64,000 nt of DNA from Elusimicrobiales bacterium (GTDB lineage: Bacteria > Elusimicrobiota > Elusimicrobia > Elusimicrobiales > UBA9959): positions 7,566 through 71,565 of the forward strand of contig JAMPXK010000003.1 of assembly GCA_023701245.1 (NCBI GenBank), written 5' to 3'. How positions within the stretch are numbered: position 1 is the first letter of the stretch; every line of letters begins with the position of its first letter. Both the position numbers and the translations under genes were made by a program. The notes under the pieces are model-generated. The model was not told the origin of the DNA. It did no database searches and saw nothing but the letters and a program-made list of their open reading frames with translations. Shown piece after piece: positions 1,424-53,040 of this stretch.

Positions 1424-2410
1424 CTAAGCCAGCAGGCGGGCGAGCACCGAAACCACTTTTTCTTTGACTGCGGGGAGGGCGCCGCGCATACGGCAGCCGG
1501 AGGCGTTGCGGTGGCCGCCGCCGCCGAAAGCCTTTGCGACCGCGCTGACGTCCAGGTGGCCGCGCGAGCGGAAGGTGACGCTGATGCGGTCCTCTTCCTC
1601 CCGGAACATGACGGCCGCCTTTACGCCGGGCGGCATCATGCCGAAATTTATCACGTTCTCGCTGTGCTCGGAACGGGCCCCGAATTCCTTGAAGTCGGAA
1701 GCCAGCAGGGTCAGCACCGCCAGCCGGCCGCCGCTCCTGAGCTGCAGGCTTTCCAGCGCGCGGCCGAGGATCTTAAGGGATTCGCAGGCCTTGGTGGCGT
1801 AAAGCAGGTCGTTTATGCGGGAGAACTTAAAGCCCGTCTCCAGCAGGCGGGAGGCGATCTCCAGCGTGCGGGGGGTAGTGGCCGGGAAATGGAAACGGCC
1901 GGTGTCGGTAACGATGGCGGTATAGAGGCAGGTGGCTTCCCGGCGCGTCATGTTGACGTTCATGTTGTAGAACAGGCGGTAGACGATCTCGGCGGTGGAG
2001 GAGGAGTGGGGCTCCACGATGTTGATGTCCCCGTAGAACTCGGAGGTCTTGTGATGGTCGATGTTGACCACCTTGCCGCAGCGCCTGAGCACCGGCTCCA
2101 GCGCCCCGCCCCTGGAAGGGGTGGAGCACTCCAGCAGTATCGCGGCGTCGAACTTGCCCACGGGCATCCTGGAATGGATGTTCTTGACGTGGGGCAGGAA
2201 GCGCAGGTTCTCGGGGACAGGGTCCTGCGAGAACAGGCGCACTTTCTTGCCCAGGCGCTTGAGCACCGAGCCGATGGCCAGCATGGAGCCTATGGTATCC
2301 CCGTCCGGGTTCAGGTGGCCCGCCAGGAAAAAGGTCTGCGAGCCGGCTATCAGTTCCTCGAGGCGCTTGAACTCAGTTTCGAGGTCCAGTGTTCTCATCG
2401 GTTTTGTCAT
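1424..2410 (-). CDS. DHH/DHHA1 phosphoesterase (NrnA-like oligoribonuclease/pAp phosphatase)
   Basis: 328 aa; GHLNPDGDTIGS, NIDHH and FGGGGHRNASG (DHHA1) motifs; 38-nt overlap with rbfA, so an alternative start at 2398 is possible. Confidence 0.85.
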   Translation of the reverse strand: MTKPMRTLDLETEFKRLEELIAGSQTFFLAGHLNPDGDTIGSMLAIGSVLKRLGKKVRLFSQDPVPENLRFLPHVKNIHSRMPVGKFDAAILLECSTPSRGGALEPVLRRCGKVVNIDHHKTSEFYGDINIVEPHSSSTAEIVYRLFYNMNVNMTRREATCLYTAIVTDTGRFHFPATTPRTLEIASRLLETGFKFSRINDLLYATKACESLKILGRALESLQLRSGGRLAVLTLLASDFKEFGARSEHSENVINFGMMPPGVKAAVMFREEEDRISVTFRSRGHLDVSAVAKAFGGGGHRNASGCRMRGALPAVKEKVVSVLARLLA

Positions 2411-2753
2411 GTTCGGAGCGTATCTTGCTGAAGATGTCCTCGATATGGGACGCCTTCTCCGGCGTCTCGTCGAACTTGAAGATCAGTTCGGGGACGTTCT
2501 TGAGGCGCAGGCGCTTGAAGAGCAGCGAGCGCAGGTCCCAGGCGTTGGCGTTGAGCAGCAGCTGCTTGCGCCGGCGGTCGTCTTCGCTCCCCATTACGGA
2601 GTAGTAGACGTAGAGGACCTTGCAGTCGCTGGTCAGGCTGGCGCCCGTAAGCGTCAGGATGCCGTGCGTGTTAACGCCGTTGACATTGCGCAGGGCGCCG
2701 CTGATCTCCTGGAGGAAGAGTTCCTTCAGGCGCTCGTTGCGTTTGGAGCCCAT
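2373..2753 (-). CDS. rbfA: ribosome-binding factor A
   Basis: 126 aa; RbfA-like N-terminus (NERLKELFLQEISGAL); directly downstream of infB. Confidence 0.85.
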   Translation of the reverse strand: MGSKRNERLKELFLQEISGALRNVNGVNTHGILTLTGASLTSDCKVLYVYYSVMGSEDDRRRKQLLLNANAWDLRSLLFKRLRLKNVPELIFKFDETPEKASHIEDIFSKIRSEHDKTDENTGPRN

Positions 2754-2756
2754 AGG

Positions 2757-5244
<2,488 letters not shown>

Positions 5245-8697: not shown

Positions 8698-8717
8698 CCG
8701 CAAGTGCTCACAACCAA

Positions 8718-8750
8718 GGACCGCCGGGCTCTCCCGGCGGTCCTCTTTTT
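8718..8750 (+). terminator. intrinsic terminator of the MFS gene
   Basis: GGACCGCCGGG-CTCT-CCCGGCGGTCC followed by TCTTTTT. Confidence 0.85.
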
Positions 8751-8797
8751 ATAGACCGCTAAAAGTCCGGTCGGGACTGACTGGGGGTGCGGGGTCG

Positions 8798-8996
8798 CGC
8801 ACACCGTGCTGGGCGGCCTACCGTGCCGACCGGAACGCAAAACGCGTTCGGCCACACCGTGGCCTCACTCATCATTCGGATTCGGCGCTGCGCAAGCCTC
8901 ATCCTCACGAAGGTTTTGCTAACCCGGTCGGCACGGTCTCCGCCCAGACTTCTCCATTTGGGAATACGGTTATATCGTGTCGCTTAGCTCCACCCG
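8798..8996. repeat. structured intergenic repeat, copy A (mosaic; core hairpin 8811-8945)
   Basis: Shares exact or near-exact blocks with copies B and C: CGCACACCGTGCT, CGGAACGCAAAA, TCGGCCACACCGTGGCC, GGTTTTGCTAACCCG, GTGTCGCTTAGCTCCACCCG. Outer stem: CCGTGCCGACCGG (8821-8833) pairs with CCGGTCGGCACGG (8924-8936); GGGCGG pairs with CCGCCC. Confidence 0.8.
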
Positions 8997-9009
8997 AGGT
9001 ATTAGAATG

Positions 9010-9033
9010 AAAAAGCCCCTTGCGGGGCTTTTT
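9010..9033. terminator. bidirectional intrinsic terminator (serves the minus-strand DUF1116 operon end)
   Basis: AAAAA-GCCCC-TTGC-GGGGC-TTTTT, 20 nt beyond the stop at 9054. Confidence 0.8.
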
Positions 9034-9053
9034 CGTCCGGCGCGGGCTTCGAT

Positions 9054-12006: not shown

Positions 12007-12065
12007 TGTGGTATCCTTAGGGAAAACCGTCCGGCCGCGTTACCGCGGGCGGCGGCGGCCCCTGA

Positions 12066-12827
12066 TCACTGCCAGGGGAAATTCTTCCTTTCCCCGAGGA
12101 AGGGAAAGCGTTCGCGGGTCTTGCGCACCAGCTCCCGGTCCAGCGGGACCTCGGAAACAAAGATCCCTTCCCTGGTCCCGCAGTCCAGCACCGTCTTGCC
12201 GAGCGGGTCGTAGCACATGGAGTTGCCGGAGTATTCCACCTTGCCTTCCAGCCCGACGCGGTCCACGCCTATGCAGTAGGCCTGGTTCTCCACGGCCCGC
12301 GCGCGCAGCAGCGTCATCCACTGCTCGGCGCGGCGCATAGGCCAGGCCGCTATCACCACGTAAACGTCCACGTCGTGCGCCTTGTTCCAGAACAGGTAGG
12401 GGAATCTCAGGTCGAAACAGACCGCCGGCATGACTTTAAGCCCTTCCAGGCCGAACACTTCCTGCTTCGTGCCGGCCTTGTAGTACTTGTCTTCCTGGCC
12501 GAAGGCGTAGAGGTGGGTCTTGGAGTAGGCGTTGATACGGTTGCCCCGGCGGTCCAGCGTGATAAGGTTGTTATAGCCCTTCTCTACCCCGCCGTAGGAG
12601 ATATTGATATTGTACTCGGCCGCGAGGCCGGAAAAGAAGGCCCGGTCGGAGTCGTCCAGTTCGGAAACGGCCGTGTTCATGGTGAACCCGCTCAGGGTCA
12701 TTTCCGAGAAGACCAGCCAGTCTATGGACGAGGCGCACTTGCATTCCTGCAGCAAGGTCTGGATCTTGCGTTTATTCGCCTCTTTGTCTTCCCACTTGAT
12801 GTCGTACTGGCACAATGCGATCTTCAT
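12066..12827 (-). CDS. carbon-nitrogen hydrolase (omega-amidase/YafV-like)
   Basis: 253 aa; Glu-Lys-Cys triad context (VFSEMT, YSKTHLY, PAVCFDLRFP). Confidence 0.85.
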   Translation of the reverse strand: MKIALCQYDIKWEDKEANKRKIQTLLQECKCASSIDWLVFSEMTLSGFTMNTAVSELDDSDRAFFSGLAAEYNINISYGGVEKGYNNLITLDRRGNRINAYSKTHLYAFGQEDKYYKAGTKQEVFGLEGLKVMPAVCFDLRFPYLFWNKAHDVDVYVVIAAWPMRRAEQWMTLLRARAVENQAYCIGVDRVGLEGKVEYSGNSMCYDPLGKTVLDCGTREGIFVSEVPLDRELVRKTRERFPFLGERKNFPWQ

Positions 12828-23663: not shown

Positions 23664-24473
23664 TTAGCGGGCCAGCACGGCGTAGTAATAGATCACCGGG
23701 GCCAGGAAAATATAGGAATCGAAACGGTCCAGGATGCCGCCGTGGCCGGGCAGGAGGTTGGAGGAATCCTTGGCGCCCACGGCGCGCTTGAGCATGGATT
23801 CGGCTATGTCGGAGATCTGCCCGAAAACGCCTATCAGCACGCCGGCCCCGGCCGCGAACAGGGGGGAGAACTCGCCGCCGGCCAGCCGGGTCACGCCCCA
23901 CGCCGTAAGGATGGCGGCTATGAAACCGGCCGCGGCGCCCTCCCAGGTCTTCTTGGGACTGATGGTGGAGAGCTGCCTGCGGCCGAAAGACTTGCCCAGG
24001 AAATACGCGGCGGTGTCCATTACCCAGACGGTGATTATCAGCGTCAGCGTAAGGGCGAAGCCGCCGGGGCGCAGGCCGCGGATGGCGACGAGGTGGAACA
24101 GGCACCAGGAGATCATGAAAATGCCCAGGAGCGTCAGGCCTATGCGCTCCAGGTATTTCTTGGGGGAAAAAAGTTCGTAGGTCATGACCCCTATCACCGT
24201 AAGCGCTATGAAGAACCCGGTGAAGTTGTCGCCGCCGGCCTGGGCCGCGGAATAATGATCGAAGTAGAGCGCGGCCGGCAGCAGCAGGCCGAACAGGTAG
24301 AGCATGGGCTCCTGCACGGGTTTGGCGCCCAGGCGCATCAGCGTGGCGAACTCGTAGAGCGAAACGGCTATGATGGTGAAGACGAAAACCGCGTAAGCCG
24401 GGCCGCCGGCGCGGATGAGCAGCAGCACCACCGGGATGCCGAACAGGGCCGTAAGCACTCTGGGTAAAAGCAT
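23664..24473 (-). CDS. cdsA: phosphatidate cytidylyltransferase
   Basis: 269 aa polytopic membrane protein; C-terminal SxxKRxxGxKDxxxLxPGHGGxLDRxDS signature present. Confidence 0.92.
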   Translation of the reverse strand: MLLPRVLTALFGIPVVLLLIRAGGPAYAVFVFTIIAVSLYEFATLMRLGAKPVQEPMLYLFGLLLPAALYFDHYSAAQAGGDNFTGFFIALTVIGVMTYELFSPKKYLERIGLTLLGIFMISWCLFHLVAIRGLRPGGFALTLTLIITVWVMDTAAYFLGKSFGRRQLSTISPKKTWEGAAAGFIAAILTAWGVTRLAGGEFSPLFAAGAGVLIGVFGQISDIAESMLKRAVGAKDSSNLLPGHGGILDRFDSYIFLAPVIYYYAVLAR

Positions 24474-25177
24474 TATTTTCCTCTCCTTCTATCGCGCGCC
24501 TGGTAGTCAAGCAGCGCGGCCATGAACTCTTTTTCGCGGAAATCGGGCCAGAACGTCTCGGTCACGTAGAACTCGGCGTAAGCGGCCTGCCAGAGCAGGA
24601 AGTTGGAAACGCGCAGTTCGCCGGAAGTGCGGATCAGCAGGTCCGGGTCGGGCAGCGAGGGGGAGTAGAGCAGCCTGGCGAAAGCGGCCTCGTCCACGCT
24701 CTTCACGCCCGACGCCAGCGCCTTGTTCACGGCGTCGGTTATCTCCTGCCTGCCCCCGTAATTAAGGGCTATATTGAGCGTCATGCCGGTCTTGCCCTTC
24801 AGGCGCTCCACGGCCTTGTCCATCACGGCCCGCGCTTTCTTCGGCAGCTGCTCCAGGCGGCCGCTGAACATCAGCCGCACGTTCTCGCGGTCCAGCTCGT
24901 CGGCGTAGGCGGCTATGGTGCGCTCCAGCAGGAACATCAGCGCGCTCACCTCCAGCCTGGAGCGGCCCCAGTTCTCGGTGGAAAAAGCGTAAATGGTAAG
25001 GGCCCTTATCCCGGCGTCGCTGGCCGCCTTTACCACGGCGTGGACGGATTCCACTCCGGCCTTATGTCCGGCTACCGCGGGCAGGCCCCGCTTTTTGGCC
25101 CAACGCCGGTTGCCGTCCATGATGATGGCCACATGGGCGGGCAACCGGGCCGGGTCGAGGGCGCTGCTTTTCGGCAT
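24473..25177 (-). CDS. uppS: undecaprenyl diphosphate synthase
   Basis: Track ORF runs to 25774 (spurious 5' extension). Homology starts at MPKSSALDPARLPAHVAIIMDGNRRWA (ATG at 25177, overlapping the frr stop by 1 nt). Confidence 0.94.
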   Translation of the reverse strand: MPKSSALDPARLPAHVAIIMDGNRRWAKKRGLPAVAGHKAGVESVHAVVKAASDAGIRALTIYAFSTENWGRSRLEVSALMFLLERTIAAYADELDRENVRLMFSGRLEQLPKKARAVMDKAVERLKGKTGMTLNIALNYGGRQEITDAVNKALASGVKSVDEAAFARLLYSPSLPDPDLLIRTSGELRVSNFLLWQAAYAEFYVTETFWPDFREKEFMAALLDYQARDRRRGK

Positions 25178-25746
25178 CAGATGGTGGTGAGTTCCTTCTC
25201 TTTGGCGGCCACCACGTCGTCCACGTTCTTGACGTAAGTATCGGTCAGTTTCTGCACGGCCTCTTCGTGGCGGGCCAGGTCGTCCTCGGTGATCTCGCCG
25301 GCCTTCTGGGCCTTCTTGATCTTCTCGAGCGCGTCGCGGCGCAGGTTGCGCATCTGCACGCGCGAATCCTCGCCCATGGAGTGGACGATCTTGACCATCT
25401 TCTTGCGCTGGTCCTCGGTCATCGGCGGCAGGTTTATGCGGATGACCCCGGCGTTGCGCGAAGGGGAGGAACCGAAATCCACTTTCCGGAGCTCGGCCTC
25501 TATGGCGTCCACCGCGCTGGCGTCCCAGGCGCGGACTTCCAGGGTGCGGGGCTCGGGCACGGACACGGCCGCCACCTGTTTGAGCGGCACCTTGGCGCCG
25601 TAATATTCCACGTAAACTCCGTCGAGCAACTGGGGATTGGCCCGGCCGGTGCGCAGCGAAGTGAGCTCGCGCCGGAACTTCTCTATTTTCTCCATCATCT
25701 CCATCTCTGCTTCGGCGATGACTTCCTGAACGGATGTTTCTGCCAT
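25177..25746 (-). CDS. frr: ribosome recycling factor
   Basis: RRF sequence from MAETSVQEVIAEAEMEMMEKIEKFRRELTSLRTGRANP (ATG at 25746, AGGAGGG upstream). Confidence 0.94.
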   Translation of the reverse strand: MAETSVQEVIAEAEMEMMEKIEKFRRELTSLRTGRANPQLLDGVYVEYYGAKVPLKQVAAVSVPEPRTLEVRAWDASAVDAIEAELRKVDFGSSPSRNAGVIRINLPPMTEDQRKKMVKIVHSMGEDSRVQMRNLRRDALEKIKKAQKAGEITEDDLARHEEAVQKLTDTYVKNVDDVVAAKEKELTTI

Positions 25747-25794
25747 AGAACGCCCTCCTGTGCGCGCGCCGCAAAGCCGGTCGCGCAAAGGATA

Positions 25795-25800
25795 ATTATA
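25795..25800 (-). promoter_or_regulatory. -10 hexamer TATAAT in the AT-rich patch upstream of frr
   Basis: Minus strand reads ...CCCCTTATATAAAATAATATAATTATCC...; about 50-nt leader with AGGAGGG SD; a hairpin plus T6 terminator of gmhA lies just upstream. Confidence 0.4.
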
Positions 25801-25840
25801 TTATTTTATATAAGGGGAAAAAAGCGGGCCCGGCCTTCCG

Positions 25841-26407
25841 CTAGGCCGAAGCCGAGTCCTCTACCAGTTCACAGACTATATGGGCGGCCAGGATATGCAG
25901 TTCCTGGACGCGCGGGGTGTCGGTCTCGGGGGCGAGGAAAGCGAGGTCGCAATGCTTGAGGATGGCGCCGCCTTTGGCGCCGAAGAACCCGATAACGGTC
26001 ATACCGAGCTCGCGGGCCTTGATGGCCGCCTGCAGCACGTTGGGGCTGGACCCCGAAGTGGAAATGGCGATAAGCGCGTCCCCGGCCCGGCCGAGGGCCT
26101 CCACCTGGCGCTCGAAAACGCGGTCGAAACCGTAGTCGTTGCCCAGGCAGGTCAGCACGGAACTGTCCGTGGTAAGGGCGATGGAGGCGATGGCTTTGCG
26201 CTCCTTTTTGAAGCGGCCCACCAGTTCTCCTGCGATATGCTGGCTGTCGGCGGCGGACCCGCCGTTGCCGCAGACCAGGATCTTGCCGCCCGCCCTGGCC
26301 GTTTTGGCGAGCGCCTGGGCGATTGGAGCGAGGGCGGCGTGGTCCGCCTCCAGCGCGGCCACAGCGGCCTGGTTCTTCTTTATAGCGGCCAGTATCTTTT
26401 CTTCCAT
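25841..26407 (-). CDS. gmhA: SIS-domain phosphoheptose isomerase (GmhA/DiaA family)
   Basis: 188 aa; ILVCGNGGSAADSQH and AISTSGSSPNV SIS motifs. Confidence 0.85.
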   Translation of the reverse strand: MEEKILAAIKKNQAAVAALEADHAALAPIAQALAKTARAGGKILVCGNGGSAADSQHIAGELVGRFKKERKAIASIALTTDSSVLTCLGNDYGFDRVFERQVEALGRAGDALIAISTSGSSPNVLQAAIKARELGMTVIGFFGAKGGAILKHCDLAFLAPETDTPRVQELHILAAHIVCELVEDSASA

Positions 26408-26410
26408 GGG

Positions 26411-27118
26411 TTAACCCTGCTGGATCAGCGTGCCGACCTTCTTGCCGGAGAGCGCCTTGCCGATATTGCCGGGCGTGTGCAGGTTGAAGACCAGGATGGG
26501 GATATGGTTCTCCATGCAGAGGGTCAGGGCGCTGGCGTCCATGAACTTAAGGCCCTTGTTGAGGGCGCTCATGTAGGTGATGTCCTTTATCAGGGTGGCC
26601 TTCGGGTCCTTCTTGGGGTCGCCGGTATAGACGCCGTCCACCTGCGTGGCCTTGAAGATGACGTCGGCGCCGATCTCGGCGGCGCGCAGGGCGGCCGCGG
26701 TATCGGTGGTGAAATAGGGGTTGCCGGTGCCGCCGGCGAAAATGACCACGCGGTCCTTCTCCAGGTGGCGGATGGCGCGCCGGCGGATGAACGGCTCGGC
26801 CACGCGGCTGATCTCCACGGCGGTCTGCACCCGGGTGGAGACGCCCTCGTGCTCCAGGGCGTTCTGCAGCGCCATGGCGTTGATGATGGTGGCGAGCATG
26901 CCCATGTTATCGGAGGTAACGCGGTCTATGCCGTGGCCGTCGCGCGCGCCGCGCCAGATATTGCCGCCGCCTATGACGATGGCCAGGCGCGTGCCTTTAC
27001 GCAGGCCTTTGGCGATCTCTTTGGCGATGTAAGTGAGGGAGGAAGGACTGATGGACCGGCTGTCGCCGGGAGTACCGAGGGCTTCGCCCGAAAGTTTCAG
27101 CAGTACGCGTTTGTACAT
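26411..27118 (-). CDS. pyrH: UMP kinase
   Basis: 235 aa; [12 protein letters not shown]-terminus, [10 protein letters not shown]. Confidence 0.96.
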
Positions 27119-27134
27119 AAACCTCCAGTGAGCT

Positions 27135-27175
27135 GGAACCGCGCCGCCGGGATCGGCCCGGCGGCGCGCAGTTCC
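27135..27175 (-). other. intercistronic GC hairpin between tsf and pyrH
   Basis: GCGCCGCCGGG-ATCGG-CCCGGCGGCGC extended by GGAAC/GTTCC; no T-tract. Confidence 0.7.
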
Positions 27176-27177
27176 GT

Positions 27178-28074
27178 TTATTCTACGCCGACTATGTAGC
27201 AGCTGAAGCGCTTGACGGTGACGTTGCCGCCGAGCTTGGCGCCCAGGTCCTTGACGATCTGGGTCACGGTCTTCTTGGAGTCGCGGATGGAAGCCTGCTC
27301 TATCAGGCAGGACTCCTGGAAGTACTTGTTCACGCGGCCTTCCAGCATCTTCTCGAGAGCCTCGGCGGGCTTGGCCTTGTACGGCCTGCCGGCCTCGGCG
27401 GCCTTGGCCTGCGCTTCGGCCTCGTCCTTCTCGGTCTTGGCGCGGTAGATCTCTTTTTCCTTGGCCACCACGTCGGCGGGAACTTCCTCGCGCTTCAAAT
27501 ACTTCGGGTTCATGGCCACGCTCTGCATGGCCAGTTCCTTGGCCAGCGCCTCGAGCTCGGCCTTGCCCTTGGCCAGGTCGCCGTCGAAAGCGAGCTCCAC
27601 CATGGCGCCCTTGCGGTTATCGGAGTGGACGTAGAAGTTGACGGCGCTGCCGGCCGCGTGGTAAACCACGCCGCGGCGGATCTGCATGTTCTCGCCGGTC
27701 TTCATGGCCACGGCCTGCATGCGTTCCTTGGCCTTCTCGCTCTCGGCCGGGTTGGCCAGGGAAGCGTCGGTGAGCATTTCGGAAGCGATGGTGGCGGCAA
27801 AGGCGTGCACGTCGGGGTTCTTGGCCACGAAATCCGTCTCGCAGTTGAGTTCGATGAGGGAATAGGCCTTGCCGTCGGTCTTGGCGACCACCACGCCTTC
27901 CTTCATGGCGCGGCCCGCGCGCTTGGCCAGGCCCGCCAGGCCCTTCTTGCGCAGAAGTTCCACGGCCTTGGCGATGTCGCCGCCGGCCTCGTTCAGGGCG
28001 CCTTTGCAGTCCATGATGCCCGCGCCGGTCTGGTTCCTGAGTGTCATTACCTGTTCGCTGGTGATTGCTGCCAT
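27178..28074 (-). CDS. tsf: elongation factor Ts
   Basis: 298 aa; [19 protein letters not shown]-like N-terminus; between rpsB and pyrH. Confidence 0.96.
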
Positions 28075-28149
28075 AATTGGGGTTCTCCTTTGTGCTTAAG
28101 AAAAAGGGGCGCCGGCGTTGATAGCCCGCGCCCCCGAGGTCAGAACGGC

Positions 28150-28980
28150 TTATTCTTCGGTGCGGACGGGCTCTTCGGCGGCGGGGGCTTCCTGGGCCTC
28201 CGGGGCGTATTCGGGAGCGCCTTCCGGCTGGGCTTCGCCGGCGTCCACGGCGGCTTCGGCCTGGGCCTGCTGGTGAGCGGCGGCCTTTTCGGCCTCGGCC
28301 TCGGCGCGGCCGTCTACCACGGCGTCGGCCATGGTGGCGCAGAACAGGCGGATGGAGCGGGCGGCGTCGTCGTTGCCGGGGATGGGCCAGTCGAGCTGGT
28401 CGGGATCGCAGTTGGTGTCGCAGACGCCTACCACGGGGATCTTGAGCCTGTGGGCTTCCTTCAGCGCGTTGGCCTCGTTGACGGGGTCCACGATGAACAT
28501 GATGTCGGGCAGGGTGCGCAGGTTGCGGATGCCGCTGAGGAGCTTGACCAGGCGGGCCTTCTCCTTGGAGAGGCGGGAAACCTCTTTCTTGGACATCACG
28601 CGGAACAGACCGTCGGACTCGAACTTTTCGAGTTCCTCGAGGCGCTTGAGGGATTTGCGCAGGGTTTCGAAATTGGTGAGCGTGCCGCCCAGCCATTTCT
28701 CGTGCACGCAGGAGACTTCGGCGCGGGTGGCCTCCTCGCGGATGATCTCTTTGGCCTGCTTCTTGGTGCCGACAAAGAGGAAGGTTTTGCCGGCTTTGGC
28801 GGAATCCTTCACGAAGGTATAGGCCTTCTTGATCTCTTTTACGGTCTTCTGCAGGTCCAGGATATGGATGCCGTTGCGTTCTCCGAATATGTAGCGGGAC
28901 ATCTTGGGGTTCCACCTGTAGGTCTGGTGACCGAAGTGGACTCCGGCTTCTAACATGCTTTTCATCGATATGTTCAACAT
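28150..28980 (-). CDS. rpsB: 30S ribosomal protein S2 (acidic A/E-rich C-terminal extension)
   Basis: 276 aa; [18 protein letters not shown] signature. Confidence 0.97.
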
Positions 28981-29065
28981 TATGGTCTAGCCTCCGTGTT
29001 TTTCGTACGTTCCGTTTCTTTTCCCGCCCTCCAGGAGCAGGATTTCAACTGAACTGTATACGCTA

Positions 29066-29095
29066 ATGATATCATAAGCGGGGGGAAGGTTTCAA
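29066..29095 (-). promoter_or_regulatory. candidate rpsB promoter (TTGAAA-18-TATCAT)
   Basis: Minus strand: TTGAAA (29095-29090), 18-nt spacer, TATCAT (29071-29066); about 75-nt leader to ATG at 28980. Confidence 0.4.
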
Positions 29096-29109
29096 CGGCC
29101 AAAGCGGCT

Positions 29110-29139
29110 TTTACAGGCCTGCGGCATATTTTCTATACT
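29110..29139 (+). promoter_or_regulatory. candidate nadE promoter (TTTACA-18-TATACT), -10 ends 7 nt before the ATG
   Basis: TTTACA at 29110-29115, TATACT at 29134-29139, ATG at 29147; no SD. Confidence 0.5.
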
Positions 29140-29146
29140 ACCCCTG

Positions 29147-30793
29147 ATGAAGATAGCCCTGGCGCAGATAAACCCGAAAGTAGGCGATATCGCCGCCAAC
29201 GCCCTCAAGATAGAGGCGTTCGCCCGGCGCGCCATGGCCCTCGGCGCCGACCTGGCCGTCTTCCCGGAACTGGCGCTGACCGGCTACCCGCCCCTGGACC
29301 TGCTGGAAAAAAAAGATTTCATCGACGAGAACCTGCGCGCCCTTAAGCGCCTGGCCGCCCTCCGCCTGAAGACCGCCCTTGCGGTGGGCTACGTGGACCG
29401 CAACCCGGCCGGCAAAGGCAAGCCGCTGCACAACTGCATAGCCCTGATCGACGGGGGCAGGATCGTTGCCCGGCAGGCCAAGTCCCTGCTGCCGACCTAC
29501 GATATTTTCGACGAGGCCCGCTATTTCGAACCGGCCGCGCGGAACAAGCCGGTGAAATTCCGCAAAACGCCCACAGGGCTGACCGTCTGCGAGGACATCT
29601 GGGCCGGCACCACCCTGCTGCCCAGCCGCCTGCTCTACCGCAACGACCCGGTGCGCGCCCTCGCCCGCGCCAAAGCCTCCATCATCATAAATATTTCGGC
29701 CTCGCCCTTTTACCGCGGCAAAGGCGCCAAACGCCGCGCCATCCTTTCCGGCCTCGCCAGGAAGCTGAAGGCCCACATCGTTTACGTGAACCAGGCGGGG
29801 GCCAACGACGAGCTCGTTTTCGACGGCAACAGCTTCGCGCTGGGGCCCGACGGCAAGGAAACGGCCCGGGCGGCCGCTTTCGCCGAGGACCTGGTGCTGC
29901 TCGACACCGCCGCCGCAGCGGCGCTTGCGCCGCAGGCCGCCCACGACGAGACCGGGGAGATACGCGCGGCGCTCACCCTCGGCATACGCGACTATTTCCA
30001 TAAAATGGGTTTCCAAAAAGCGGTGCTGGGTCTGAGCGGCGGCATAGACTCGGCGGTAGTGGCCGCGCTGGCCGCCGACGCGCTGGGCCCGGAGAACGTG
30101 ACGGGCGTGCTGATGCCTTCCGACTACACCTCCAGGCAGAGCACGGACGACGCCCTGCGCACCGCGGCCAACCTGGGCATAAAGACGCGCGTCCTGCCTA
30201 TTAAAAACATCTACGCCGCCTTCCTTAAGGAACTGGGCGCCGGGGACCCGGCGGGCGACGTGAGCCTGACCATGCAGAACCTGCAGTCCCGCGCGCGCGG
30301 CAGCCTGCGCATGGCGTTGGCCAACGCCAATAACTGGCTGGCCCTGGCCACCGGCAACAAGTCGGAGATAGCCGTGGGCTACTGCACGCTTTACGGCGAC
30401 ACCGCCGGCGCCATCGCCCCTATCTCGGACCTGTTCAAGACCGAGGTCTACAAACTGGCCGCTCATTTCAACCGGGCCGGCGAAGTAATCCCCCGGGCGG
30501 TCATAGTCCGCCCGCCCACGGCGGAGCTGAAGCCCGGGCAGAAAGACCAGGACGACCTGCCGCCCTATGCCGAACTCGACGAAGTGATCCGCCTCTACCT
30601 GGAAGAGAACCGCTCTCCCTCCGAGATAATCCGGCGCGGCTTTCCCCGGGACCTGGTGCTGCCTCTCCTGCGCAAGGTGGAAGCCAACGAGTACAAGAGA
30701 AAACAGCTGGCGATAGGCCTGAAGGTAACGGAAAAATCTTTCGGTTACGGCCGCAAGATGCCCATCGTCAAGTCCCTCGGCTTCATCAAATAA
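29147..30793 (+). CDS. nadE: glutamine-dependent NAD+ synthetase
   Basis: 548 aa; N-terminal C-N hydrolase domain plus C-terminal NAD synthase with GLSGGIDSAV PP-loop. Confidence 0.95.
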   Translation: MKIALAQINPKVGDIAANALKIEAFARRAMALGADLAVFPELALTGYPPLDLLEKKDFIDENLRALKRLAALRLKTALAVGYVDRNPAGKGKPLHNCIALIDGGRIVARQAKSLLPTYDIFDEARYFEPAARNKPVKFRKTPTGLTVCEDIWAGTTLLPSRLLYRNDPVRALARAKASIIINISASPFYRGKGAKRRAILSGLARKLKAHIVYVNQAGANDELVFDGNSFALGPDGKETARAAAFAEDLVLLDTAAAAALAPQAAHDETGEIRAALTLGIRDYFHKMGFQKAVLGLSGGIDSAVVAALAADALGPENVTGVLMPSDYTSRQSTDDALRTAANLGIKTRVLPIKNIYAAFLKELGAGDPAGDVSLTMQNLQSRARGSLRMALANANNWLALATGNKSEIAVGYCTLYGDTAGAIAPISDLFKTEVYKLAAHFNRAGEVIPRAVIVRPPTAELKPGQKDQDDLPPYAELDEVIRLYLEENRSPSEIIRRGFPRDLVLPLLRKVEANEYKRKQLAIGLKVTEKSFGYGRKMPIVKSLGFIK

Positions 30794-30797
30794 CATC

Positions 30798-32153
30798 ATG
30801 CCCCGCCTCCTCCACGTCCTCCTGGCCGTAACTTTTTTGTGCGCCTCCGCGCAGGCCCAGACGCCAAAAAAACGGCGCCTCGTCAAGGCCGCCGCCAAGC
30901 CCGCGCAGAGACTGGTCCGCCGGACCGAGCCGGAGACCAAGGAGGACATCCTGAAGACGGTGGGCCGCCAGGCGCCCAAAGACGGCCTGCTCGCGCGCGT
31001 CCTCAACGCCATCACCATCGACACGGCCAACGGCCCGATCATCCCTTTCCCGGTGGTGGATTCCAGCAAGGACCTGGGCCCCAGTTTCGGCGTGATGCCG
31101 GTCATCGCCATACGGGAGAAGGGCACCGGCAACATCAAGTCCGTGCTGGTGCCGTCCCTGAACTACAACCAGAACCTGCGCACCACGGCCACCTACCGCC
31201 ACTACATCTTCCCCGACGAAAAGCGCTTTTTCATCCTCCGGGCCTCGCACTCCGAACGCGTAGAGCGGGAACTGATGGCCTACTACTACACCCCGCAGCT
31301 GCTGGGCACCGGCCTGCGCTTCAGCCTGGAGGGCAAGCACTGGATAACCGGCAAACCTTCTTTCTACGGCTTCGGCATCAATTCCCAGCGCGGCGACAAG
31401 GCCAACTACTCCCTGGAGATGACAGGCGGAGAGGTCATCCTGGACGTGCCGCTGAAGAAGGAACTGTTCGTGAACGTCACCAGCGCTTATTTCGAAAAGC
31501 GCATCGGCGCCGGCCCGGTGAGCAGCGGGCAGCTGCGCGACCTGTTCCCGGCCATCTACTCCGAAGCCGCAGAACGGCGCGCCTTCCTCACCAACCGTTT
31601 CGCGCTGGTCTACGACAATACCGACCACCCGTCCCTGCCGAAGATCGGGACCTACGCCAGCGCCTCGGTCCTGTACTCCAACAGGCGCCTGGGGTCGGAT
31701 TACGAGTACCGCACCTACTCCCTGCAGGCCAAGCACTACTTCAATTACAAGCAGGAAGGGCGCTACGTTACGGCGGCGCATTACCTGCTGCAGTTCCAGC
31801 GGGGGCAGGTCCCGCCGTTCTATGCCCTGCCGCAGCTGGGGGAAAGCACCGGCCTGCGCATGGCCGGCGACGGCCGCTTCACCGGGCGCGGCAAGTTCGT
31901 CTTCACCATAGAAGAGCGCATCACCCTGTCGCGCACGCCGTTCTACAAGTTCGTGAGCGAAACCGAGATAGCGCCGTTCCTCGACGTAGGCACGGTATTC
32001 GACAGGGTCTCTGATTTCCGTGCCAGGGACCTGAAGTACGGGCCGGGCATCTCCGCGCGGCTGGTCATCCGGCCGCAGCTGGTGGCCACGGTGGACTTCG
32101 CCTACGGGTCGGAAGGCACCAACGCCATCATAAAGATCGGGTACCCTTTTTAA
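30798..32153 (+). CDS. outer-membrane beta-barrel, Omp85/surface-antigen-like without POTRA repeats
   Basis: 451 aa; signal peptide (LLAVTFLCASAQA), alternating beta-strand pattern, C-terminal ...IKIGYPF aromatic terminus. Confidence 0.7.
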   Translation: MPRLLHVLLAVTFLCASAQAQTPKKRRLVKAAAKPAQRLVRRTEPETKEDILKTVGRQAPKDGLLARVLNAITIDTANGPIIPFPVVDSSKDLGPSFGVMPVIAIREKGTGNIKSVLVPSLNYNQNLRTTATYRHYIFPDEKRFFILRASHSERVERELMAYYYTPQLLGTGLRFSLEGKHWITGKPSFYGFGINSQRGDKANYSLEMTGGEVILDVPLKKELFVNVTSAYFEKRIGAGPVSSGQLRDLFPAIYSEAAERRAFLTNRFALVYDNTDHPSLPKIGTYASASVLYSNRRLGSDYEYRTYSLQAKHYFNYKQEGRYVTAAHYLLQFQRGQVPPFYALPQLGESTGLRMAGDGRFTGRGKFVFTIEERITLSRTPFYKFVSETEIAPFLDVGTVFDRVSDFRARDLKYGPGISARLVIRPQLVATVDFAYGSEGTNAIIKIGYPF

Positions 32154-32621
32154 ATGATAACCCGCGACAAAAAAGTGCGCATTTCGGCCAAGGCCATAGT
32201 TATAAGGAAAGGGCGCCTGCTTTTGATGCGAGCCGCGGACAGGCAGGGCACTTATTACCTGCTGCCGGGCGGCGGCCAGAAGAACGGCGAAACCCTGCAC
32301 GAGGCCGTAGTGCGGGAATGCGCGGAGGAGACGGGGCTGCTGGTCCAGCCCGGCCAGCCCCGCTACATCCGCGACTACGTGGCCCGGCACCACGAGTTCG
32401 CCCGGTGGGACGCCAGTTTCCACCAGGTGGAGATCATGTTCCCCTGCGAGTTCATAAAGCGCATCGGCGCCCCGCACGAGCCGGACGCGCGCCAGACCGG
32501 CATCAGCTGGGTGGCCACCTCGCGCCTGGGGAAAATACGGCTTTACCCGTCGCTGCTCAAGATCCTCATAGCCCCGGACGGGCGCCTGCGGGGCCCGCTC
32601 TACCTGGGCGACAGCAACTAA
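32154..32621 (+). CDS. NUDIX hydrolase
   Basis: 155 aa; Nudix box GGGQKNGETLHEAVVRECAEETGL; ATG abuts the upstream stop codon. Confidence 0.88.
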   Translation: MITRDKKVRISAKAIVIRKGRLLLMRAADRQGTYYLLPGGGQKNGETLHEAVVRECAEETGLLVQPGQPRYIRDYVARHHEFARWDASFHQVEIMFPCEFIKRIGAPHEPDARQTGISWVATSRLGKIRLYPSLLKILIAPDGRLRGPLYLGDSN

Positions 32622-32629
32622 AACTCCGC

Positions 32630-32781
32630 CCCCACGAACGGGGCGGAACGCAAAAACAGGGTCGCTGCGGTGTCGCTTCGCTCCACCCGCACACCGTGCT
32701 CGCCCTTCCATGTCTCGGCCCTCGCGCTTACGCAAGCTCGGGCCTCCGACACGGTTTTGCTAACCCGCCCCGTTCATGGGG
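32630..32781. repeat. structured intergenic repeat, copy B
   Basis: Outer stem: CCCCACGAACGGGGCGG (32630-32646) pairs with CCGCCCCGTTCATGGGG (32765-32781). Inner stem: GCAAAAAC with GTTTTGC. Core block TCGGCCCTCGCGCTTACGCAAGCTCGGGCCT matches copy C at 28/31 positions. Confidence 0.8.
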
Positions 32782-33609
32782 TCAGGTGTGTTTAGATTCG
32801 CTTGATATCAGTTGCTTGAGGCGGGACTCGAGGGCGGCGCGGAAGCCGTCCTCTACGTTGCGCTGTCCCTTGGAAATGCCGTCGCGGAAAGCCGCGAAGT
32901 ACGGCTGCAGGCGCCCGGCCTGGTCGGTGACGGGGAAGAACAGCAGTTCGCGCAGGGCGCCGCGGACCAGGTCCGGGGACAGGGAGAGGAATTCCTGGGA
33001 GAAACCCGAAACCACCGGCACCGGGTATTCCGCGAGGTAGAGGTTGCCGGCAAGTTCCTGCTCGCCGGCCTCTATCGCCAGCTTCATGCGCCTGGAGGCC
33101 GCCGCGAGGGCGCCGCGCATGGACTCCAGCCGTTGCGCGTCCTTCACCAGCACCGAGGCGTGCTCCAGGGTCTTGAAATATCTTTCAGCCGAAGCCAGTT
33201 TCACCGGCCGCGGGCCCAGCGCCTCCTGCCCCTGCGTCACCCGGCAGGACCGCAAACCGGCCGCGGAGAACGAAACCAGGCGCTCGCCGTGCAGCGCGAC
33301 CAGGCCGCGCACCGGCCTGGGGAAGCAAAAACCGGAAGGTTCCCAGGTCATGCAGCGCTCGAAACGCAAACGGCCCAGGAGGAGGGGGAAGATCTGCGCG
33401 AGGACTTTAGCCTGGGGACCGGTTGGGACCCCGGTGACATACAGCGCGAGGCGCCGGCAGGTACCGTAGGCTTCGATCCCCACGAAGGGCAGGGCGCGGA
33501 CGGCGAATTCCTGCGCGGCCAGCTTACCGAGCTGTTCCACGGCGGAGCGCACGGCGCCGCCGGGGAGATTCTCCGCCAGTATCTCCAGGACCGCGTCGCG
33601 CGCCGTCAT
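32782..33609 (-). CDS. truncated GlyRS beta-subunit homolog (N-terminal ~270 aa only); possible relic or pseudogene
   Basis: 275 aa; aligns by eye to the E. coli GlyS N-terminus (EILAENLP, YGTCRRLALYV, MTWEPSGFCFPRPVRGLVALHG, LAEYPVPVVSGFSQEFLSLSPDLV). Lacks the remaining ~400 aa. ATGA-coupled to the upstream GlyQ-like ORF. Confidence 0.6.
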   Translation of the reverse strand: MTARDAVLEILAENLPGGAVRSAVEQLGKLAAQEFAVRALPFVGIEAYGTCRRLALYVTGVPTGPQAKVLAQIFPLLLGRLRFERCMTWEPSGFCFPRPVRGLVALHGERLVSFSAAGLRSCRVTQGQEALGPRPVKLASAERYFKTLEHASVLVKDAQRLESMRGALAAASRRMKLAIEAGEQELAGNLYLAEYPVPVVSGFSQEFLSLSPDLVRGALRELLFFPVTDQAGRLQPYFAAFRDGISKGQRNVEDGFRAALESRLKQLISSESKHT

Positions 33610-34109
33610 GCGGCCTCCCCGGAGTGCAGTTCTCCGTAGGTCAGGCGCCCGGCCCAGGAGAGTTCCGCGGCCGAGCGTTTGCGCTGGGACACCAGCGCCA
33701 GGCGTTCAAGCACCACCACGATCTCCGCAGAAGCCCGCGCAGCGGCGGCCTTGTAAACGAAACCGGCCAGCGGCTGGCCGTCCAGCAGCACGTTCCAGCC
33801 GGCGCCTTCGGCCGTGCCGCCGGGCCCGTCGGAAGGCAGCCAGCGCAGGTCGTGCTCGGACCTGTCTATGCCGACGGCCCGCAGGGAATCCAGGAAAGCG
33901 CGGCGCGCTCCGTCGGGGGCCGGCTTCAGGAGGACGCGGTAGCGGTAAAGGCCGGGCAGGCCGTCCGGGGCGGGGCCGCGGCGAGCGGCCCCGGCGAGAC
34001 AGAGCGGGCCGGCAAAATCCGCGCGGCCGGCGGCGCCCGGCGGCAGCAGGGCGCAGCCCTGCCGGGCCCAGTAGCGGTCTAATTTTAAGATTATGTCCTG
34101 AAAATCCAC
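33606..34109 (-). CDS. truncated, degenerate GlyRS alpha-subunit homolog; possible relic or pseudogene
   Basis: 167 aa, GTG start. FQDIILKLDRYWARQGC, YRYRVLLKPAPDG, GAGWNVLLDGQPLAGFVY and VLERLALV match GlyQ blocks. The motif-2 region is shortened and the C-terminal domain is absent. Confidence 0.6.
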   Translation of the reverse strand: MDFQDIILKLDRYWARQGCALLPPGAAGRADFAGPLCLAGAARRGPAPDGLPGLYRYRVLLKPAPDGARRAFLDSLRAVGIDRSEHDLRWLPSDGPGGTAEGAGWNVLLDGQPLAGFVYKAAAARASAEIVVVLERLALVSQRKRSAAELSWAGRLTYGELHSGEAA

Positions 34110-52818: not shown

Positions 52819-52836
52819 CGCCGCCCCAAAACACAA

Positions 52837-52870
52837 CGCGACCGCCGGGACAACCCGGCGGTCGCGCTTT
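52837..52870 (+). terminator. hairpin terminator after murF
   Basis: CGCGACCGCCGGG-ACAA-CCCGGCGGTCGCG (13-bp stem) then CTTTAT (weak T-tract). Confidence 0.6.
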
Positions 52871-52896
52871 ATCACCCGATAATTCGACAGGAGCGA

Positions 52897-53014
52897 CGAG
52901 GGGATGGGTTTTCCGGGCACGCGGTCGGCCACACCGTGGCCGCCGCTCCTCACTCGGCCTTCGCGCTTACGTAAGCTCAGGCCTGCGCGAAGGCCCGGCA
53001 AACCCATCCCCTCG
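52897..53014. repeat. structured intergenic repeat, copy C
   Basis: Outer stem: CGAGGGGATGGGTTT (52897-52911) pairs with AAACCCATCCCCTCG (53000-53014). Internal hairpins GGCCACACCGTGGCC (52927-52941) and GGCCTTCGCGC...GCGCGAAGGCC around the palindrome GCTTACGTAAGC. Confidence 0.8.
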
Positions 53015-53040
53015 CCGCCCCTTCATTCGGATGGAGGGTA

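Follow-up and report, generated by a model that had tools for sequence, protein, structure and literature searches.

A clade of high-GC uncultivated Elusimicrobia (Elusimicrobiales) carries a superfamily of hairpin-rich intergenic repeats that is restricted to this clade and apparently undescribed so far. The element is 125-200 nt long, and three full copies and one fragment lie in the 64,000-nt stretch of DNA analyzed here (the window). We give about an even chance to the reading that it is a non-autonomous mobile element moving via a folded single-stranded intermediate, that is, selfish DNA and not a set of genes. An earlier note on this DNA had described three copies (A, B and C) of a mosaic repeat joined by short common blocks, and these blocks are found where it had placed them. 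By blastn-short, A and C have 23 nt in common at 22/23 (E=5e-5), B and C 32 nt at 29/32 (E=8e-6), and A and B have blocks of 20 nt (19/20), 15, 13 and 12 nt. The 9-mer CACACCGTG occurs four times in the window, always on the plus strand (expected 0.28; 0/100 shuffles reach 4), and GTGTCGCTTMGCTCCACCCG occurs twice against an expectation of 0.04. The three copies are the strongest inverted repeats in the window, and their folding has z-scores of -5 to -9 against shuffled sequence. A covariance model (R1), built from an alignment of 80 copies from other genomes (A1), recovers exactly these three full copies, all on the minus strand, and the fragment (Table 1), which establishes the three-copy family as real.

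The family extends well beyond the window. An exact-pattern scan of one genome per species (CACACCGTG..GCGCT..CGYAAGC) returned at least 118 stretches, and among the matches listed at least 105 are true copies, found in at least about 44 assemblies (MAG species) with a GC content of 51-64%, all of them Elusimicrobia/Elusimicrobiales MAGs. The remaining 13 of the 118 listed matches are chance occurrences within coding sequence of Actinomycetota, Bradyrhizobium and others. In related loci totalling 741 kb, model R1 finds 124 copies. That CACACCGTG and GCGCT..CGYAAGC never vary in A1 follows from their use in the search pattern, and in copies found by the model alone the apical motifs vary (CACUGUGUG, CGCUAUGCG, GCUUGCAUAAGC) with the hairpins kept. 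The core is identical across approximately 105 nt in four different species (L007, L024, L115, L067). The nearest sampled relative of the window is Elusimicrobia bacterium GWC2_64_44, with 88% nucleotide identity in the MFS gene. Rfam gives no match at the gathering threshold or in a search by E-value threshold, its sole matches being far sub-threshold, generic miRNA hairpins, and no tRNA or tmRNA was found. Plasmid and phage collections contain no match to the element, and the single match in IMG/VR viral contigs is a chance one in coding sequence. A full-text literature search found no description of repeats of this type in Elusimicrobia.

Table 1 Features of the repeat copies and their surroundings (window positions unless a locus is named)
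Feature	Position	Strand	Remarks
Intrinsic terminator of MFS gene	8717-8744	+	outside the element
Older type-2 copy, remnant 1	8770-8808	-	R1 fragment match 8794-8810
Copy A, subtype 1a, full element	8809-8947	-	R1 match 8817-8939, 100.6 bits
Copy A P0	8809-8816 / 8940-8947	+	CTGGGCGG / CCGCCCAG
Copy A P1	8820-8833 / 8924-8937	+	
Copy A P2	8837-8843 / 8913-8919	+	GCAAAAC / GTTTTGC
Copy A P3 hairpin	8850-8864	+	
Copy A P4/P5 hairpin	~8870-8910	+	diverged
Subtype 1a 5' leader (folded orientation)	8948-8976	-	conserved upstream of 1a copies L063, L067, L073, L034
Older copy, remnant 2	8977-8999	-	optional hairpin module GTGTCGCTTAGCTCCAC + CCGAGG
Bidirectional terminator	9010-9035		near copy A
Terminator-like hairpin	32615-32649	-	CCGCCCC/GGGGCGG + U-run; overlaps 3' arm of copy B P1
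Copy B, type 1 + optional hairpin	32630-32781	-	R1 match 32635-32780, 78.6 bits
Copy B P1	32630-32646 / 32765-32781		one C·A mismatch on +
Copy B P2	32650-32656 / 32754-32760		
Copy B P3 region	32659-32707		includes optional hairpin 32668-32688
Copy B P4/P5	32712-32752		
Bidirectional terminator hairpin after murF	52835-52868		kept in relative L120, which is without copy C
Putative copy C 3' tail (folded orientation)	52871-52888	-	diverged; from flank comparison
Copy C, type 2	52889-53022	-	R1 match 52892-53019, 114.4 bits; inverted repeat
Copy C closing-stem arms	52889-52918 / 52993-53022		30 nt, 90% complementary
Copy C P3 hairpin	52921-52946		
Copy C P4/P5 hairpin	52950-52992		
F2 example	L051:3353-3501	+	
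F2 example	L018:1315-1465	+	
F2 example	L006:5774-5922	-	
F2 example	L113:1958-2099	+	

All copies are built on a closing stem of 30-45 bp (P0/P1/P2) that carries a three-way junction. One junction hairpin, P3, has the apex CAC-GGU-GUG, and the other, P4/P5, has a tandem G·A internal loop (5'-GA/GA-3'), a GC bulge and the apex GCUUGCGUAAGC. On the folded strand, RNAalifold applied to A1 also predicts an internal loop GUUA/GUU in the closing stem. As P2, type 1 has GCAAAAC/GUUUUGC, and type 2, for example copy C, has GCCCG/CGGGC. The inner helix of C had been described as strand-swapped to GGGTTT/AAACCC, but that pairing belongs to its outer stem, and the true counterpart, the P2 of C, is CCGGGC/GCCCGG. 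A further hairpin, GUG-GA-[stem, GUAA or GAA loop]-GA-CAC, is optional: some copies carry it, and two different positions are known for it. It corresponds to the block GTGTCGCTTCGCTCCAC in B and in the right flank of A, and its module sequence GTGTCGCTTAGCTCCAC is found within B, L002, L047, L073 and L118. Besides P5, P0 and the optional hairpin also contain tandem G·A internal loops. Across approximately 100 copies the outer stems follow subtype consensus sequences (for example GGGACCGG; GGGTATGGG; GGCGGCCTACCG), so that stems once thought to be unrelated between copies are better described as variable and family-specific. Those of type 1 are copy-specific, with only the inner GGNNNGCAAAAC conserved, and those of type 2 end in terminal inverted repeats of approximately 22 nt (GGAGGGGYGGCGAGGGYATGGG). 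The claim that the outer stems pair perfectly fails for B, which has one C·A mismatch on the plus strand (G·U on the other strand).

The compensatory variation suspected from the three copies alone is borne out in the alignment, in which RNAalifold finds compensatory change in 22 of the 27 predicted pairs. Paired cells make up 91.6% (68% in shuffled alignments), and double-change cells number 485 against 164 in shuffles, a count that none of 500 shuffles reaches and that falls to at most 123 when the partners are slid, with the caveat that covariation was counted on paralogous copies and that gene conversion between copies could inflate the counts. The core is enclosed by a median of 34.5 pairs. 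Between L009 and L025, orthologous copies that are otherwise near-identical, a paired change is seen in P5. A small ORF with its AUG inside GGGUAUGGG is not conserved, and the element is non-coding, as had been argued.

The earlier note had described the structure on the strand that carries CACACCGTG, but the folded strand is the reverse complement of that one. Of 101 copies, 98 fold more stably on the strand opposite CACACCGTG (p=7e-18), whose mean energy is -82.7 kcal/mol against -73.3 kcal/mol, and the minus strand is also the more stable in all three window copies when DNA energy parameters are used. Isolated 1x1 mismatches point the same way: counted in Watson-Crick-only helices, they are G·U 51 and G·A 39 on the folded strand, with their complements at 14 and 2 (A·C 51, C·T 39, G·T 14 and A·G 2 on the CACACCGTG strand). 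Together, stability and mismatch bias indicate that the constraint acts on one single strand, RNA or ssDNA, which in the window is the minus strand. Orientation has no clear tie to replication direction in what is a weak test, and GC skew is uninformative here because it tracks the gene strand. As a separate observation, the genes of the window switch from almost all minus to mostly plus near 28-30 kb, within a region (approximately 24000-32000) across which positive GC skew gives way to negative; with a C-rich sense strand, the skew follows the gene strand. The switch could be a replication-origin-like divergence.

A fold of this kind could also mark a multi-copy structured non-coding RNA family with a host function, in which the folded strand would be transcribed, for example as protein-binding 3'-UTR or sRNA modules, and the helices would persist through selection on RNA structure. 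The strong covariation and the one-strand G·U and G·A bias argue for it, and so do the near-identical orthologous copies with the paired change in P5. Tandem G·A loops and GNRA loops are typical RNA motifs, and the near-identity of the core, the recurrent tandem G·A loops and the GUAA/GAA apical loops fit a functional RNA as well as they fit a mobile element. Transcription of B and C probably yields the folded strand, given that both copies lie in the 3' UTR of minus-strand genes, before the terminators. We nevertheless think a host RNA unlikely, since the copies share neither a conserved promoter nor a conserved terminator (no sigma-70-like promoter adjoins any window copy, and flank comparison found no conserved upstream box) and single copies lie at random relative to their neighbor genes, the folded strand being sense in 23 cases and antisense in 27. 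Copy A is situated past the terminator of the MFS gene, with no promoter-like site near. Where copies are paired head-to-head, just 8-100 nt separate their 5' ends, and the longest unbroken helix of a copy measures 15 bp at the median and 28 bp at most. Copies are frequently truncated, nested or assembled from swapped modules, and gain and loss at orthologous sites are fast, as described below. The sRNA family that had been listed among the candidate identities is hence the weaker one, in view of the lack of promoters, the random orientation and the short distance between head-to-head 5' ends, and the REP/MITE-like or hairpin-targeting element listed beside it is the best, in view of gain, loss and nesting. 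The same orientation counts (27 versus 23) also reject a 3'-UTR element whose strand would follow that of the gene upstream.

Copies sit at gene 3' ends. The gaps occupied by the family are tandem in 32 + 21 cases (co-oriented and opposed to the CACACCGTG strand, respectively), convergent in 25 and divergent in only 5, according to crude in-house gene calls, so divergent gaps are avoided. All three window copies lie in convergent gaps, as first reported: A between an MFS gene and AllG, B between a NUDIX and a GlyS-like gene, and C between MurF and a C11 peptidase gene. Copy B is directly adjacent to the GlyS-like gene's stop codon (32782). Beyond it, at 32782-34109 on the minus strand, lie two short neighboring ORFs with partial matches only, one of 167 aa to GlyQ (profile positions 60-188 of 278) and one of 275 aa to GlyS (120-320 of 536); they could be truncated paralogues or decayed genes. 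Near copy C, a small hairpin, CCCTTCATTCGGATGGAGGG, lies at 53019-53038 (plus strand) between the copy and the stop of the C11 gene, and its TCATTCGGAT recurs within copy A at 8873-8882.

The preference for gene 3' ends suggests another possibility, namely host-selected DNA or RNA structures at gene ends (terminators, insulators or mRNA 3'-end protection hairpins, as proposed for REP/BIME) that would have spread mainly by recombination or gene conversion. In L120 the C11 gene's own terminator hairpin occupies the place of copy C, and copy B overlaps a terminator-like hairpin with a U-run that offers an alternative pairing to its P1. Moreover, one orthologous gap holds three subtypes in three species (L033, L072, L061), which suggests replacement by conversion. 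However, B is the only window copy with such an overlap. Canonical separate terminators already stand beside A and C, and no U-tract follows the stems of A, C or most other copies. The outer stems are therefore not ordinary terminators, and the element as a whole is not an intrinsic terminator. A strand-specific fold with gene-independent orientation would be unexpected for terminators, and copies also stand between genes whose counterparts in relatives overlap or are translationally coupled. We regard host-selected gene-end structures as distinctly unlikely. An origin of the outer stems as terminator palindromes split by insertion was also rejected: no class of long, empty palindromes is present in the window, the stems follow a subtype consensus, and empty orthologous sites are without such a hairpin.

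Comparison of related species reveals rapid turnover. Between species pairs with 71-86% nucleotide identity, 16 of 42 orthologous intergenic sites are filled in one and empty in the other, the identity in these 16 cases being 72-82%. Where the element is missing, the neighboring genes touch or overlap each other, and some are translationally coupled in relatives. The site of copy C, downstream of murF, is empty in five relatives. Even between the window and GWC2_64_44 the element content differs at site A, and GWC2_64_44 has a copy where the window (12018-12068) has none. At L092:5710-6040 the stop codon of a nadB-like gene is replaced by the insertion, and the ORF now ends at a TGA inside the element. 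No target-site duplication flanks 10 well-delimited copies or the filled/empty sites, although diverged relatives could hide short ones, and the relatives are too diverged for a precise insertion junction to be defined at the filled/empty sites. At the GWC2_64_44 site orthologous to copy A (L117:2910-3572, minus strand), a low-GC ORF of 220 aa lies between a core-A copy and a copy of a second family, F2 (see below). It is hypothetical with a signal-peptide-like N-terminus, and the window has nothing there.

Copies also nest into older copies at the P3 hairpin. At least eight full copies directly abut a fragment (L007, L048, L072, L090, L115, L060, L023 and window A). The abutting fragments keep only the 3' part of the folded strand, their breaks cluster at the P3 hairpin, and they are always next to full copies, never dispersed. 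Copy A itself is a composite, a full 1a copy nested in an older type-2 copy: it interrupts a remnant consisting of the outer frame GTCGGG... and half of a P3 hairpin ending in CACACCGTG, and a second remnant lies on its other side. The B-type blocks that had been noticed at both ends of A are indeed there, but they result from this nesting and not from a different architecture. A single locus, L088:6800-7090 (plus strand), has 5' fragments: two of them, comprising the P1/P2/P4 5' halves and UAUUGUYAGCGUAGUCUGGG, stand in tandem upstream of a full copy beside a tRNA gene.

Most copies are single, not paired. Where two core-A copies are adjacent, they are head-to-head, (-)(+) on the folded strand, in 15 of 15 cases, and in 24 of 24 when F2 partners are counted, independent of the orientation of the flanking genes. 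F2 is approximately 145 nt long and has an unrelated core, GGGGGCCCCGCC-AUAAUUUCCCAA-GGCGGGGGG with the hairpin GGAACCG-CGCAA-CGGUUCC, bounded by the type-2 frame and tail. Its copies have ends of approximately 22 nt in common with type 2, and the two families have a common chassis with ..GCCAGGCCCCCGAC-UGGGCAUCUCGCGG at the 3' side and GGAGGGG... at the 5' end. The diverged tail of copy C can be assigned tentatively as the counterpart of the conserved type-2 tail ..CCCCGAC-UGGGCAUCUCGCGG. Approximately 17 F2 copies are present in the sampled loci and none in the window, those adjoining a core-A copy are always head-to-head with it, and F2 has no match in Rfam. The known modules thus comprise three outer frames (type 2, subtype 1a and copy-specific type 1), two cores and the optional hairpin. 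The presence of F2 on the type-2 chassis implies that modules recombine, and makes 'mosaic' an apt description.

A 3' frame and tail common to two families with different cores, together with 3'-end-only fragments and a strand-specific structure, would also suit a SINE-like retro-mobile RNA, reverse-transcribed in trans starting at its conserved 3' end, the enzyme stalling or switching template at P3, but this is very improbable given that no reverse transcriptase gene lies near any copy examined, fragments adjoin full copies, 5' fragments do occur (L088), no poly-A or other priming signature is seen and transcription is only putative.

The reading as a non-autonomous mobile element draws on the copy number, the turnover at orthologous sites, the nesting at a specific hairpin and the strict pairing geometry, as well as on the 'safe-haven' positions at gene 3' ends, the absence of promoters, the gene-independent orientation and the perfect long stems. 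Further evidence for it comes from the covariation, the strand-specific fold, the three subtypes in one orthologous gap and the replaced stop codon. The variable outer stems count against it, being unusual for MITEs with fixed terminal repeats. Under this mobile-element reading, an enzyme encoded in trans would recognize the folded strand by its shape and its conserved loops and bulges, in the manner of REP/REPIN with RAYT or of IS200/IS605 ends with a Y1 HUH transposase. Preferred targets would be the element's own hairpins and 5' flank. The long stems would be kept paired by selection on the folded strand and probably also by hairpin-templated correction during replication, and inserted copies may secondarily serve as 3'-end RNA structures. 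Neither the window nor approximately 1 Mb of sampled loci yielded a transposase, a RAYT or a reverse transcriptase; E. coli RayT used as a tblastn query gave no match in either, which for the window agrees with the earlier note. The sampled loci likewise contain no autonomous copy (split ends enclosing an ORF) and no recurrent transposase-like neighbor: the recurring neighbors are two-component and ABC paralogues only, and the genes bracketed by copies are ordinary. A bolder proposition, in which our confidence is low, is that the folded strand of this modular, phylum-restricted superfamily, in which one chassis bears exchangeable cores (core A here, core F2 in relatives), is the substrate of an undiscovered trans-acting machine. 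One candidate would be an ssDNA transposase or recombinase of a new kind that recognizes structure and targets the element's own hairpins; the alternative would be an RNA-based (retro-)mobility or ribonucleoprotein system recognizing the tandem-G·A motifs.

Among known systems, the element behaves like a BIME/REPIN or BOX-type mosaic repeat and belongs to none of them. Like the REP/BIME/REPIN sequences of Proteobacteria, which occur with RAYT (TnpA-REP) transposases, it forms high-copy extragenic hairpins at gene 3' ends, with inverted pairs the rule, mosaic subtypes, compensatory stems, no target-site duplication and no cis-encoded transposase. Membership of REP fails on unit size, since REP units are imperfect palindromes of 20-40 nt and the element here is 125-200 nt with a three-way junction. 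It also fails on the GTAG (or CGTC) tag found at one end of every REP hairpin: here GTAGGCC stands beside the outer stem in subtype 1a only, and type 2 has GACAGG or GCCAGG in that position. Furthermore, REP sequences are genome-specific, whereas this core is conserved over at least about 44 species. Correia (Neisseria), ERIC (Enterobacteria), BOX and RUP (Streptococcus pneumoniae) and RIME (Rhizobia) are likewise non-coding intergenic repeats of 100-200 nt with long self-complementary ends; the A/B/C modules of BOX are a similar modular design, and MITE-like repeats of this kind are present or absent between relatives and occur in either orientation. The element differs from them in its copy-specific type-1 stems, its strand-asymmetric fold and its strict head-to-head rule, and no related insertion sequence was found for it. 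Classical MITE membership fails because no target-site duplication is seen. The terminal repeats are conserved in type 2 and F2 but are not fixed in all copies.

Strand-specific subterminal hairpins, a lack of duplication and insertion at hairpins are also features of IS200/IS605 ends, their ORF-less derivatives (PATEs) and the hairpin-targeting IS110/IS1111, the likely preferred target here being the element's own P3 hairpin and 5' flank. However, no TnpA, TnpB or DEDD transposase and no conserved tetranucleotide target was seen for this element, and its closing stem spans the whole element. HEARO/IscB omega RNAs and IS605-orfB RNAs are similarly multi-copy, supported by covariation and present or absent between relatives, but the element is shorter, has no Rfam match, no adjacent IscB or TnpB ORF and no single-stranded guide. 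Integron attC sites carry R''/L''-L'/R' boxes and occur in same-orientation cassette arrays next to intI. They were rejected as an identity, given that the AAC motifs here lie on the same strand on both sides and that copies, single or in inverted pairs, are scattered among housekeeping genes.

With these repeats, a phylum that is known almost exclusively through metagenomes gains a large repeat superfamily with clear limits and rich covariation. Among bacterial interspersed repeats it is unusual in its multi-helix junction, in a core maintained over at least about 44 species, in its one-strand fold and in a head-to-head rule to which the sample contains no exception. With such properties, the missing partner (an enzyme or a binding protein) becomes a concrete target to search for. 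In practice, the elements are usable as lineage markers for Elusimicrobiales, and they alter gene 3' ends, as in the replaced stop codon noted above. They also break contigs and can cause chimeric joins in MAGs, of which we have one example. In L050 (LBTN01000004.1, 'Candidatus Magasanikbacteria GW2011_GWA2_37_8', 1500-4331) the GC content changes from approximately 30% to approximately 60% and the contig ends inside a true copy, the most probable explanation being a chimeric assembly join or the mis-binning of Elusimicrobia DNA.
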